Virus record (IMG/VR): IMGVR_UViG_3300029647_000054
Span: 1 to 10,785 of that record
DNA: 10,785 nucleotides
Source: a virus
Taxonomy: Duplodnaviria; Heunggongvirae; Uroviricota; Caudoviricetes
Direction: 5' to 3' (one strand)
The position numbers and the translations under genes are program-made. Shown piece after piece: positions 7,266 to 10,785 of this stretch. The notes beneath the pieces were generated by a model. It was not told the DNA's origin and made no database searches. It saw nothing but the letters and a program-made list of their open reading frames with translations. Position 1 is the stretch's first letter, and each line of letters opens with the position of its first letter.

Positions 7266-7766
7266 ATGAAAAGAAAACCCCTGTCAGAGATCGACCTGCA
7301 AGCCGCCCAGAGACTGAAAGAAATCTGGACGACGAAAAAAACTCAACTTGGGTTAACCCAAGAGCGTGCGGCAGAAATTCTGGGTTTTTCGACACAAGGG
7401 GCAGTAAGCCATTATCTAAATGGTCAGACACCTTTAAATCTAGAGGCTGTTATCAAGTTCGCTGGGTTGCTACAAGTTCCGCCTGAGTCAATTAGACCAG
7501 ATATGGCAGACTTGTTACGAATTGTAAGGATGTACCCCCAAGAACTGCAGCAGGATAATGTTGTCGCTTTACCCGCAGAGATGGAACAATCGGAAAACGA
7601 ACTTCCGTTTAATATAGAACCTATAGAGCGAGATTTGATCCAGACGTTCAGGGCTTTCCCAAAAGAAGACAAAGAGAAAATGCTTAAGGAAATGAAGGAG
7701 AAAAAAGAATCAATTGAAGAAACCGTTGCGCGGTGGCTAGAGGCGCAAAAAGGTCTTCGCGCCTAA
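7266..7766 (+). CDS. paaR: CI-like HTH repressor, regulator of the three-component TA module (PaaR-like, 166 aa); no S24 peptidase domain
   Basis: N-terminal HTH (LGLTQERAAEILGFSTQGAVSHYLNG); divergent from Cro-like gene; directly upstream of antitoxin-toxin pair; C-terminus too short and lacks a LexA-like autocleavage domain. Confidence 0.75.
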   Translation: MKRKPLSEIDLQAAQRLKEIWTTKKTQLGLTQERAAEILGFSTQGAVSHYLNGQTPLNLEAVIKFAGLLQVPPESIRPDMADLLRIVRMYPQELQQDNVVALPAEMEQSENELPFNIEPIERDLIQTFRAFPKEDKEKMLKEMKEKKESIEETVARWLEAQKGLRA

Positions 7767-7783
7767 TCTGAGGAGGTTAGAAC

Positions 7784-7975
7784 ATGAGTACAGTCCTTTC
7801 CCCGATAATTTCAGAATTTGAAACAATCGAACAAGAAAACAGCTATAACGAATGGTTACGCACCAAAGTGGCAGCAAGCCTCGCAGACCCCCGTCCTGCA
7901 ATTCCGCATGACGAAGTAATGGCTGAAATGGAAAACCTTATTGCGCAAATAGCTTCGACGAACAGGAGTGAGTAA
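7784..7975 (+). CDS. paaA: PaaA-like antitoxin (63 aa)
   Basis: 63-aa acidic protein immediately upstream of and overlapping (TAATG) the ParE toxin gene; matches my recollection of the PaaA2 antitoxin from E. coli O157 paaR2-paaA2-parE2; SD GAGGAGG at 8 nt. Confidence 0.7.
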   Translation: MSTVLSPIISEFETIEQENSYNEWLRTKVAASLADPRPAIPHDEVMAEMENLIAQIASTNRSE

Positions 7976-8265
7976 TGCTGCCCATTTTATGGCTACCTTC
8001 TGCGCGTGATGATTTGCGTCAGATCGTAGCCTATATTGCCAAGGAAAACCCTCCCGCTGCACGTAGACTAAAAATACGCATTGAAACATCAGTTTTGTCA
8101 CTTACTGAACACCCTTACCTGTATCCACCAAGCGAAAGAGCCCTAGGCCTTCGTGAGATAGTGACCCATCCTAACTACATAATACTTTACCGAGTAACAG
8201 CATCTAACATCGAGATCGTAAATGTAGTTCACTCACGAAGGCAGTATCCAAACAAAAGCTGTTAA
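7975..8265 (+). CDS. parE: ParE/RelE-superfamily toxin (ParE-like, 96 aa)
   Basis: Typical ParE sequence features (LPILWLPSARDDLRQIVAYI...EHPYLYPPSE...REIV); start overlaps antitoxin stop by 1 nt. Confidence 0.8.
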   Translation: MLPILWLPSARDDLRQIVAYIAKENPPAARRLKIRIETSVLSLTEHPYLYPPSERALGLREIVTHPNYIILYRVTASNIEIVNVVHSRRQYPNKSC

Positions 8266-8280
8266 TCATTCCTACCAACA

Positions 8281-8304
8281 ACCACCTTCGGGTGGTTTTT
8301 TTTT
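8281..8304 (+). terminator. Rho-independent terminator after parE
   Basis: ACCACC-TTCG-GGTGGT hairpin followed by a run of nine T. Confidence 0.8.
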
Positions 8305-8538: not shown

Positions 8539-8691
8539 ATGGATACTATCGAGCTTGGCAACAGCGAATCTCTGGTATGCGGCGTGTTTCCCAACCAGGA
8601 CGGCACGTTTACCGCGATGACGTATACCAGAAGCAAAACGTTTAAAACGGAAGCTGGCGCGCGTCGCTGGTTAGCAAGAAGCTCTGACTGA
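8539..8691 (+). CDS. Small protein (50 aa), first gene of the PL-type operon; possibly YdfA/YdaF (DUF1391)-like
   Basis: ATG with SD GAGG at 5 nt; in frame with the track ORF whose GTG start lies inside the operator; family assignment is positional only. Confidence 0.4.
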   Translation: MDTIELGNSESLVCGVFPNQDGTFTAMTYTRSKTFKTEAGARRWLARSSD

Positions 8692-8789
8692 TGAAGGTTA
8701 GTAATTAAAGAGTTCTCCACAGGCGAAGTGGAATACGTTCGCAGGACACGGGTAAGCATTCGGCATGCTCTTTAACAATCTGGGTATTC

Positions 8790-9236
8790 CTAACCACAAA
8801 GGAATCGCATCAATTTGGATTTTGCAGACAGTTTCTCTTGTTGTTCTACGGAGATTCCTATTTTGATCTGGGTTTTTAAGATTGCGATATCTTTAAGCGA
8901 CGACCAAATATTATCATCTGTTTTTTCCAGGAGCTTTAACTGCATTTTCAATTCCGAATCGGAATATTTTTCTGCATCATCATAAAGCTGCAGATATTCT
9001 GCGGATTTTCTCATTGCGTTACCTGACTTTTGTCCGAATCCGTAAATCGTTTGAACGGTTGCTATCACAACAATGAGAACTCCAGAAACTTCAGGAATAA
9101 ATCCACCAATGACAGATGAACCGAGGATAATACTCACCACTGAGAAAAGTTTATCGAGACGACCAGTCGCTACAGAGAATAGTTGTTCAAGAAAATAACC
9201 ATATAAAACCCTGTCAAGAATATCATCCCGGTCCAT
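8790..9236 (-). CDS. AT-rich two-TM membrane protein with coiled-coil-like C-terminus (148 aa); candidate superinfection-exclusion (sieB-position) protein
   Basis: Opposite strand to the surrounding operon; SD AGGTG at 8 nt; hydrophobic segments LFSVVSIILGSSVIGGFI and VLIVVIATVQTIYGF; clearly lower GC than neighbours; function inferred from position. Confidence 0.55.
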   Translation of the reverse strand: MDRDDILDRVLYGYFLEQLFSVATGRLDKLFSVVSIILGSSVIGGFIPEVSGVLIVVIATVQTIYGFGQKSGNAMRKSAEYLQLYDDAEKYSDSELKMQLKLLEKTDDNIWSSLKDIAILKTQIKIGISVEQQEKLSAKSKLMRFLCG

Positions 9237-9295
9237 ATATCATCACCTGCTTGTTTGATTGTTGCTGTTCCCCCTCTCCTCTGAAGGAGCTGGAG

Positions 9296-9484
9296 ATGGT
9301 TTTGGTCGAATGTTTTTCTCAGGTATATGTTTCCTGGTATTCGGAATGTCCGCCCTGTCCGCAGGCTTACCAGTACCTGAACAATTCTTTTGAACCACCA
9401 TATAAAACACCTTCCTGTTGTTGGGGATATCCAGATTATACAGATTTCCTGTTATTGGGGAATGACGGAAACCACCTCGCCTGA
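9296..9484 (+). CDS. Small Cys-rich protein (62 aa), hypothetical
   Basis: ATG with SD GAAGGAG at 6 nt; six Cys including CPPCP and SCCW; preferred over the overlapping low-complexity minus-strand ORF. Confidence 0.4.
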   Translation: MVLVECFSQVYVSWYSECPPCPQAYQYLNNSFEPPYKTPSCCWGYPDYTDFLLLGNDGNHLA

Positions 9485-9699
9485 CGTGGTTAAAAGCAGG
9501 CACACAACACGAAAGCGCACGGCGAGATTCCTTTGCATATAAGGCTTGTCGTTAAATTTCTTCGACCGTGCACTTCCGGTTGTGGCAGTCCGCGAAATGG
9601 CGCGGCGGTAAGTATGGCTGGGGCTTCCTCCATTGCTCCAGAAAATGCACCGGGTCGTCAGGTTGACCATACGCTTAAGTGACAGCCCCGCCACAATAC

Positions 9700-9757
9700 C
9701 CATGTGTAGTATTTGGTGGCATCAGTTCTACTCCGTGACTGCTCTGCCACCCTTTTT
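9700..9757 (+). ncRNA. dicF: DicF-like small RNA (ftsZ-targeting sRNA family) with intrinsic terminator
   Basis: TTTGGTGGCATCAGTTCTACTCCGTGACTGCTCTGCCACCCTTTTT closely matches my recollection of K-12 DicF, with compensatory stem changes; sits directly upstream of dicB as in Qin. Confidence 0.7.
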
Positions 9758-9761
9758 AAAG

Positions 9762-9922
9762 TGAATTTTGTGATGCGGTGAATGCGGCTATGCGCACGCG
9801 GAACAGTTAAAACCGTAAAGTGGTCTTTTACGGGGCGTAACGGGCATCCTTCTGTATTCCGGCGTTAATTGTTAACTGGTTAACGTCACCTGGAGGCACC
9901 AGGCACCGCATCACAAAATTCA
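9762..9922 (+). repeat. Long-range 19-nt perfect inverted repeat (TGAATTTTGTGATGCGGTG at 9762-9780 and its reverse complement at 9904-9922) bracketing 123 nt between dicF and dicB
   Basis: Read directly; would form a 19-bp RNA duplex in the operon transcript. Confidence 0.7.
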
Positions 9923-9939
9923 TTGTTGAGGACGCGATA

Positions 9940-10128
9940 ATGGAAACGTTATTACCAAACGTTAATACGTCTGAAGGTTGTTTTGATATTGGTGTTCTGC
10001 TCAGTAACCGGGAGTTTACGGAAGATGCCATTAAGATGAGAAAATATGAACCTTATCTTCTCAATGATAATTCCATACTTTCCAGAATTGCCCTTCTTGA
10101 ACTTGGTATTATCGGAGAACAGCAGTGA
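9940..10128 (+). CDS. dicB: Cell division inhibitor DicB (62 aa)
   Basis: N-terminal 35 residues (METLLPNVNTSEGCFDIGV...FTEDAI) closely match K-12 DicB as recalled; C-terminus diverges; SD GAGGA at 7 nt. Confidence 0.85.
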   Translation: METLLPNVNTSEGCFDIGVLLSNREFTEDAIKMRKYEPYLLNDNSILSRIALLELGIIGEQQ

Positions 10129-10313
10129 CTTCAGCATTTGCACTGGTGATGACCGTTTTTCTTATAACGGGTGAGCCACAAAATGTGATTACCGGAATTT
10201 ATGACAGTAAGTCATCCTGCATTCAGGTAAGGGACGAACAAAAAATCCCCGGTGAATGCCTCCCGTTAAAAAAAGTATCGCTGAACCTGAATAACGAAAT
10301 ACCGGCTGGATAA
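10125..10313 (+). CDS. ydfD: YdfD-like small membrane/lysis protein (62 aa, GTG start)
   Basis: GTG overlaps the dicB stop (GTGA), SD GGAGAA at 5 nt; N-terminal hydrophobic helix; assignment by position in the dicB operon and size. Confidence 0.5.
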   Translation: MTSAFALVMTVFLITGEPQNVITGIYDSKSSCIQVRDEQKIPGECLPLKKVSLNLNNEIPAG

Positions 10314-10408
10314 CCCGCCAGCCATATTAACACCATACCAACGGATTAAAAATGCCAGCAATGGCAGGGATTCGTTCACCCTGAAATCTGTAATGAGGTT
10401 AAAACAAA

Positions 10409-10785
10409 ATGAGTAAAGTCTTTATTTGCGCCGCTATTCCTGACGAACTGGCAACAAGGGAAGAAGGCGCTGTGGCTGTAGCCACAGCCATTGAAGCTGG
10501 CGACGAACGCCGTGCTCGAGCAAAATTTCACTGGCAATTCCTGGAACATTATCCGGCTGCTCAGGACTGCGCTTATAAATTTATTGTCTGCGAGGATAAA
10601 CCCGGCATACCCCGCCCTGCCCTCGATTCATGGGATGCTGAATATATGCAGGAAAACCGCTGGGATGAGGAGTCTGCTTCCTTTGCCCCGGTTGAGACTG
10701 AATCAGATCCGATGAACGTCACTTTTGACAAGCTGGCCCCTGAAGTACAGAACGCTGTCATGGTTAAGTTCGACACATGTGAAAA
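10409..10785 (+). CDS. Partial CDS (runs off the window end, at least 125 aa), YdfE-position hypothetical protein
   Basis: ATG at 10409 with SD GAGG; open frame to the window end; not in the track because no stop is reached. Confidence 0.55.
   Translation, partial: MSKVFICAAIPDELATREEGAVAVATAIEAGDERRARAKFHWQFLEHYPAAQDCAYKFIVCEDKPGIPRPALDSWDAEYMQENRWDEESASFAPVETESDPMNVTFDKLAPEVQNAVMVKFDTCE

Follow-up and report, generated by a model that had tools for sequence, protein, structure and literature searches.

DicF is a textbook prophage sRNA that connects induction of the prophage with division and sugar metabolism of the host and, in EHEC, with virulence. To our knowledge, all mechanistic work on DicF has been carried out with the K-12-type sequence. 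In K-12 the RNA is excised from an operon transcript; RNase III generates a precursor of 190 nt, the 53-nt form is made by RNase E (bioRxiv 10.1101/2023.04.14.536235), and the 3' end of DicF is formed either by termination or by RNase III, which gives a 72-nt form (PMC5069750). In published genetic work, ftsZ and pykA were found to be targets of the 3' part of the RNA and xylR a target of its 5' end (PMC5069750); manX has been assigned to the 3' end (PMC5861419). As summarized in PMC7873438, four dicF copies are present in the EHEC O157:H7 strains Sakai and 86-24 (Melson and Kendall 2019), and dicF travels with different prophages and has been co-opted for other targets, for example pchA. These copies share with the locus described below that they are prophage-borne paralogues in lambdoid prophages other than Qin. 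Modular Hfq sRNAs of the OmrA/OmrB type (PMC3318445) are similar in that they combine a conserved module with a divergent one able to change the target set; OmrA and OmrB are core-genome tandem duplicates, whereas the alleles of DicF are carried by different prophages, and the likeness is one of analogy only.

The stretch of DNA analyzed here (the window) comprises 10,785 nucleotides of the IMG/VR virus record IMGVR_UViG_3300029647_000054. A scan of the whole window with Rfam matched RF00039 (DicF) at 9701-9752 on the plus strand, with 62.0 bits (gathering score, 48; E value, 5.7e-12), and the match spans model positions 1-52 of 52 with zero non-canonical pairs flagged. The likeness to DicF pointed out in an initial annotation of this DNA is in this way extended to the full family model, and the covariance-model score together with the position just upstream of dicB identifies the locus as a bona fide DicF family RNA gene. 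For comparison, K-12 dicF scores 76.7 bits. The window's form is called type B in the following and the K-12-type sequence type A; 61 bits were obtained for other type B copies and 51 for the aberrant locus L131. Two matches in the scan exceeded the curated thresholds, the other being an unrelated hok/sok type I toxin-antitoxin RNA at 290-464 on the minus strand (Rfam sok RF01794, 117.6 bits versus a cut-off of 59), with the hok reading frame presumably just downstream of the sok element on the same strand.

The full sequence of 9700-9757 (plus strand) is CCATGTGTAGTATTTGGTGGCATCAGTTCTACTCCGTGACTGCTCTGCCACCCTTTTT, that is the DicF sequence CCATGTGTAGTATTTGGTGGCATCAGTTCTACTCCGTGACTGCTCTGCCACCC followed by TTTTT, where 9700 is taken as the start by right-anchored analogy with K-12 alone. 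The U5 tail is the end for Rho-independent termination and likely also the Hfq-binding 3' end, by analogy with the K-12 literature (PMC5069750). The locus belongs to the DicF family, is syntenic with dicB, has an intact hairpin and U tail between a conserved leader and a conserved downstream stem, and recurs in other genomes. We consider it likely that it represents a variant dicF allele which has kept the core regulation and in which the 5' module and the processing site have been replaced. The features discussed are collected in Table 1.

Table 1 Features of the type B dicF locus and its surroundings in the window.
Feature	Position	Strand	Evidence or remark
ydfA-like DUF1391 gene	8539..8691	+	Pfam PF07151, E 3.6e-27; 90% identical to K-12 ydfA
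148-aa ORF in insertion	8790-9236	-	phrog_6315, function unassigned; no Pfam or PADLOC match
86-aa ORF in insertion	9243-9503		no matches
Leader homologous to K-12 DicF precursor region	9494..9699	+	76% identity; blastn; folds
Long imperfect hairpin in conserved leader	about 9503-9584	+	folds
DicF type B allele	9700..9757	+	53 nt right-anchored on K-12 DicF, plus 5-U tail
Divergent 5' region CCATGTGTAGTA	9700..9711	+	in place of K-12 5' seed UUUCUGGUGACG; pairwise alignment
Terminator-type hairpin	9715..9751	+	9715-9721 pairs with 9745-9751, 9723-9726 with 9738-9741; folds
Hairpin loop, 11 nt	9727-9737	+	contains anti-Shine-Dalgarno-like UACUCCG
C followed by U5 tail	9752..9757	+	sequence; same in K-12
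Long-range stem, 5' arm, 21 bp, just downstream of DicF	9760..9780	+	folds
Long-range stem, 3' arm	9904..9924	+	ends just before dicB ribosome-binding site
dicB, 62 aa	9940..10128	+	Pfam PF05358 DicB, E 3.7e-38; annotated dicB in near-identical genomes

As reference we used the 53-nt ncRNA dicF of the Qin cryptic prophage (RF00039; b1574) from the curated MG1655 record, TTTCTGGTGACGTTTGGCGGTATCAGTTTTACTCCGTGACTGCTCTGCCGCCC. Both RNAs lie upstream of dicB, share hairpin architecture and energy, and agree over positions 13-53 apart from four substitutions; the precursor leader, a downstream stem of the RNase III type and the predicted pairing with ftsZ, pykA and manX are also common to them. The window differs in its unrelated 12-nt 5' seed, in 14 nt including the RNase E site that are gone, in the loss of the predicted xylR pairing, in a C-G pair of the stem that has become U-A, a U.G pair that has become C-G and a U>C change in the loop, and in an insertion that takes the place of ydfB and ydfC.

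The core at 9712-9752 is identical to K-12 at 37 of 41 positions. The initial annotation had stated that GGCGG/CCGCC is changed to GGTGG/CCACC with pairing kept, which is correct, as 9717 C>T is paired with 9749 G>A, so that a C-G pair becomes U-A by a two-sided compensatory change. It had also described the loop and the 3' portion as nearly identical to K-12; this holds for the core as a whole, but two further changes were missing from its list, namely 9720 T>C, which turns the U.G pair with 9746 into C-G (wobble to Watson-Crick), and 9728 T>C in the loop.

That the first 12 nt or so differ was equally well seen, since 9700-9711 are unrelated to K-12, the 5' region having 15% identity and the core 90%. 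In related loci the 5' region reads CCATGTGTAGTC, CCATGCGTAGTC or CCATGTGTTGTC, and type B copies differ from one another at 3 of its 12 positions. In the pairwise alignment the change is a local replacement of K-12 CCCTCTGTTATCAATTTTCTGGTGACGTTTGG by CCCATGTGTAGTATTTGG, the window being 14 nt shorter, and the shortening falls exactly across the K-12 5' end. The RNase E site of K-12, AAU↓UUUCUGG (arrow, cut), which gives the 53-nt RNA with a 15-nt single-stranded 5' seed, is thereby absent from the window, a feature which belongs to the maturation of the K-12 allele and not to the Rfam family definition. Because this site is replaced, the mature 5' end of the window allele must differ from that of K-12. 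A mosaic recombination boundary within dicF was ruled out: blastn homology to the K-12 Qin dicBF locus covers 9492 to 10785, including both flanks of dicF, and resumes immediately upstream of the replaced segment, back to 9492. Since K-12 homology continues on both sides, the divergence is not a lambdoid mosaic junction. Non-K-12 alleles from prophage contigs in which the 5' end is still of the K-12 type have only one to three substitutions, for example ATTCTGGTGACATTT.

The window RNA folds with -15.8 kcal/mol (z -2.34, 3 of 200 shuffles as good), against -15.9 for K-12, and its minimum free energy and centroid structures are both identical to the Rfam consensus structure, with 11 of 11 pairs standard, an internal bulge, an 11-nt loop and the U tail. 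Across 22 distinct alleles 98.8% of the cells in the Rfam structure are standard pairs, compared to 24-72% when the 3' partners are slid by one to three columns as a register control. The pair 9717/9749 is C-G in 16 of these alleles, U-A in four and U.G in one, with one mismatch, and the pair 9720/9746 is U.G in 15, C-G in six and U-A in one. The U.G intermediate at 9717/9749 is found in the related allele L131, and an independent change from U.G to C-G has occurred in a type A background (L128), both of which are consistent with a maintained helix. All four U-A rows sit in the type B clade, and the two-sided change is therefore most simply explained as one event, which it probably was. Furthermore, intrinsic terminator function alone could explain selection for the compensatory change, with or without action of the RNA in trans. 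The reading of the paired changes as a covariation signature of a functional structured RNA is supported by a real, pairing-preserving change with an intermediate in L131, with the qualification that this was probably a single event for which terminator function could suffice.

This brings up an alternative which we regard as unlikely, namely that the locus is a cis-only element which, as an intrinsic terminator or attenuator and together with the RNase III stems flanking it, keeps transcripts from reading through into the toxic gene dicB, and that no trans-acting sRNA accumulates as the maturation site is gone. Hairpin and U5 tail together make up a textbook Rho-independent terminator, situated 190 nt upstream of dicB, the compensatory change requires stem function alone, the K-12 RNase E site is deleted, and the 21-bp stem downstream extends to the dicB ribosome-binding region. 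A pure terminator, however, has no need of a conserved 11-nt loop, and the heptamer ACUCCGU in it is invariant in 22 of 22 alleles and is exactly the part complementary to the Shine-Dalgarno regions of ftsZ and pykA. Moreover, the AU-rich stretch 9697-9714, single-stranded in the fold, still has sites resembling the RNase E motif, and in K-12 the same hairpin has both roles (PMC5069750).

A better argument for a trans-acting RNA than covariation is found in the degree of conservation. Identity to K-12 is 90% in the DicF core, where the loop (10 of 11 positions) is as conserved as the stem, compared to 69% in dicB and 57% in the DUF1482 gene, in lineages of type A and type B that have diverged by about 20% overall. 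The two arms flanking the dicF-dicB spacer are 97% identical to K-12 each.

If type B acts as a trans-encoded RNA, it would, as in K-12, be excised from the transcript of the operon. Termination at the RNA's own hairpin, or RNase III cutting within the stem downstream, would define the 3' end, and the 5' end would come from processing of a precursor generated by RNase III. The hairpin in the conserved leader is probably the RNase III substrate for the 190-nt precursor, judging from its fold and from the precursor described in K-12. Likewise, the stem beginning at 9760 is a probable RNase III site giving the 72-nt DicF form, a position that fits the published cut (PMC5069750). This stem encloses the dicF-dicB spacer, the segment 9753-9935 folding with -71.7 kcal/mol (z -5.65), and 12 combinations of its arms across the loci preserve the pairing, pair 9776/9908 occurring as C-G, U.G and U-A. 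The base of the element pairs the U tail of DicF with the region just before the dicB start, and according to the fold the long-range stem could also gate dicB translation. Within the spacer, a perfect hairpin GGCGTTAATTGTTAACTGGTTAACGTC is located at 9861-9887; the block 9866-9895 around it is 100% identical to K-12, compared to only 70% in the surrounding spacer, and the hairpin could be a candidate protein-binding site or processing signal.

When the K-12 precursor is folded, the 5' seed CUGGUGACG forms a helix with UGUUAUCA upstream of it, and the site cut by RNase E is in the intervening loop; type B is without exactly that upstream arm and loop. The single-stranded 9697-9714 of the window contains GU↓AUU at 9710/9711, which matches the RNase E preference RN↓WUU. 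The mature 5' end of type B would be elsewhere than in K-12, with 9710/9711 as one candidate, and a cut at this position would leave a DicF of roughly 42 nt with almost no 5' seed. Without the K-12 RNase E site, a short stable RNA may also fail to form or may have a different length. In a separate consideration of the region upstream, GCCAC (9689-9693) was examined as an antiterminator partner co-varying with the 5' arm of the hairpin and was dropped as unsupported: the pairing amounts to only 5 bp, 12 type A loci have GCTAC and yet an unchanged GGCGG arm, and the same variation fits equally well to pairing with GUUGUGGC further upstream.

Target pairing was calculated as duplex energies with the K-12 target regions in restricted windows, because duplexes with whole transcripts gave unrealistic long-range pairing. 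In these energies, which ignore accessibility and Hfq, the core of the window allele performs much as that of K-12: -17.5 against -18.8 kcal/mol for ftsZ (nt 23-47 with ftsZ -24..+1), -29.6 against -28.6 for pykA and -28.6 against -32.7 for manX. The loop change at 9728 results in a mismatch or a register shift in the ftsZ duplex. The 5' seed of K-12 pairs with xylR at -16.7 kcal/mol with 13 contiguous pairs, a value reached by 7 of 1000 shuffled seeds, whereas the best xylR pairing of the window seed is -7.6 kcal/mol at an unrelated site and is equalled by 850 of 1000 shuffles. Pairing with ftsZ, pykA and manX via the core is hence predicted to be kept, and the validated seed pairing of K-12 with xylR is predicted to be lost.

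The invariant loop and 3' part (CAGUUCUACUCCGUGACUGCUCUGCC) would accordingly in this model, together with Hfq, pair with the ribosome-binding site of ftsZ and with pykA and manX and bring about their repression. As the xylR-pairing seed of K-12 is replaced by unrelated sequence, type B is therefore predicted no longer to regulate xylR. With its 5' region, type B forms no new pairing to ftsZ, pykA, manX or xylR that beats shuffled seeds; the best were found for ftsZ (57 of 1000 shuffles as good), for manX at +22..+33 (-13.0 kcal/mol, 91 of 1000) and for the pykA ribosome-binding site (-11.0 kcal/mol, 252 of 1000). The expectation in the initial annotation that the variant 5' region could alter target specificity is thus followed in silico by the loss of the xylR pairing, but there is no convincing new pairing among the four targets. 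Altered target specificity of type B is plausible on the basis of these predictions.

The locus is part of an early operon of the dicBF type in a lambdoid or Rac-like prophage. The ydfA-like DUF1391 gene is the first gene of such an operon, a ydfD-like DUF1482 gene is found downstream of dicB, and the order of the DicB, DUF1482 and DUF1391 genes is the same as in K-12 Qin; near-identical genomes continue with an exonuclease, an excisionase and an integrase beside ompW. Between the ydfA-like gene and the dicF leader, an insertion of 0.7 kb (about 8764-9491) replaces ydfB and ydfC. Its minus-strand gene is antisense to the operon and terminator-like hairpins are present on the plus strand at 8951-9004; because of these, transcription from the operon promoter may stop short of dicF and might not reach it across the insertion. 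A search for a promoter belonging to dicF itself found no sigma-70-like site next to the gene. Upstream of the operon, 7290-8297 encodes an HTH regulator (annotated racR in related genomes) followed by a PaaA2 antitoxin (7784-7975) and a ParE toxin (7975-8265), resembling a three-gene toxin-antitoxin module of the PaaR2-PaaA2-ParE2 type, with a strong terminator-like hairpin at 8280-8297 after the ParE gene. The module is missing from the otherwise near-identical genome G1/2.

The type B allele is not confined to the window. A scan of IMG/VR for the conserved core gave 120 prophage or viral contigs, most of them type A or point variants thereof, and type B (CCATGYGTAGTMTTTGGTGGC...GCCACCC) was found in five, one of which (L074) is identical to the window. 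A DicF-like sequence is present in 4,030 of 5,426 complete E. coli genomes, and the type B junction (9676-9726, 51 nt) in 208 of the 5,426, or about 4%, at 216 places; 23 genomes carry it without mismatch and a further 184 with one or two mismatches, and it is always chromosomal. Strains with the exact allele include RM10466, G1/2, NCTC9112 and the O113:H21 strain FWSEC0010. No O157:H7 strain occurs among the 60 of the 208 type B genomes that were listed. The allele is absent from the 50,697 INPHARED records of named phages. In the GTDB scan, with one genome per species, the DicF core was found only in Escherichia and Shigella, apart from evidently misbinned MAG contigs, and these cores were all type A, plus one chance match (L125).

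The surroundings of type B differ between loci. One locus (L136) has ydfC upstream, two (L131 and L121) lie beside an exonuclease gene, and in L135 a truncated dicB is followed by a Rha gene. The last of these, from strain AR_0067 (NZ_CP032261.1), has in 626-1100 the type B dicF, the truncated dicB, the Rfam elements isrK and C4 antisense RNA and a Rha-family gene; here the type B allele has recombined into a P1/P7-like immunity-region context.

No annotated feature lies under the type B junction in the 208 RefSeq genomes, and four allele-specific sequence strings gave no match in the searchable literature. As to identity with a known allele, a question raised at the outset, the exact sequence does exist in 23 complete genomes and one IMG/VR contig, but it is unannotated and undescribed there. 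We conclude that type B is a recurrent, unannotated and apparently undescribed allele of the otherwise well-known DicF family. The RefSeq/PGAP record of the K-12 strain DH1Ec169 (L122) leaves dicF unannotated as well, and the curated MG1655 record alone annotates it. Since RefSeq/PGAP records show no feature under dicF, annotation-based surveys undercount the gene. A published dicF survey required >99% identity to K-12 (PMC5069750, Fig. 9), and high-identity surveys of this kind will miss type B, which is unannotated in its 208 carriers.

The distribution also bears on the possibility that type B is a decaying relic, a DicF pseudogene in a cryptic prophage that has lost its 5' end by deletion and drifts without function. 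The gene is located in prophage DNA, its 5' part is replaced with the loss of 14 nt, the Rfam score falls from 77 bits in K-12 to 62 (and to 51 in L131, a related locus), three of the 12 positions of the 5' region differ between type B copies, and one type B locus has a truncated dicB. Drift would nevertheless be hard to reconcile with a core that is better conserved than the neighbouring protein genes, with stem changes that are compensatory and not disruptive, with flanking processing stems that are intact, and with an allele that occurs in 208 genomes, in several prophage contexts, and shows no more than two mismatches in the 51-nt junction. We hold this explanation to be very improbable.

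Within our preferred reading of type B as a variant allele with a kept core, a more far-reaching and tentative idea, which we put forward as possible but doubtful, is that DicF is a two-module regulator, with a fixed core for ftsZ, pykA and manX and a 5' module that is exchangeable between prophage lineages. Type B would then be a natural seed swap lacking the xylR arm, and would have either its own lineage-specific targets or, if cut at 9710/9711, be a shorter DicF without a seed. If the two-module idea is true, strains with both type A and type B would have two DicF regulons that share their output on cell division. Type B is a potential natural separation-of-function variant, in which the ftsZ-pairing core is intact and the 5' seed and the processing site are replaced. 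As such it could reveal which of the DicF phenotypes need the 5' seed and how RNase E picks the 5' end, and whether prophage lineages diversify the target sets of their sRNAs.
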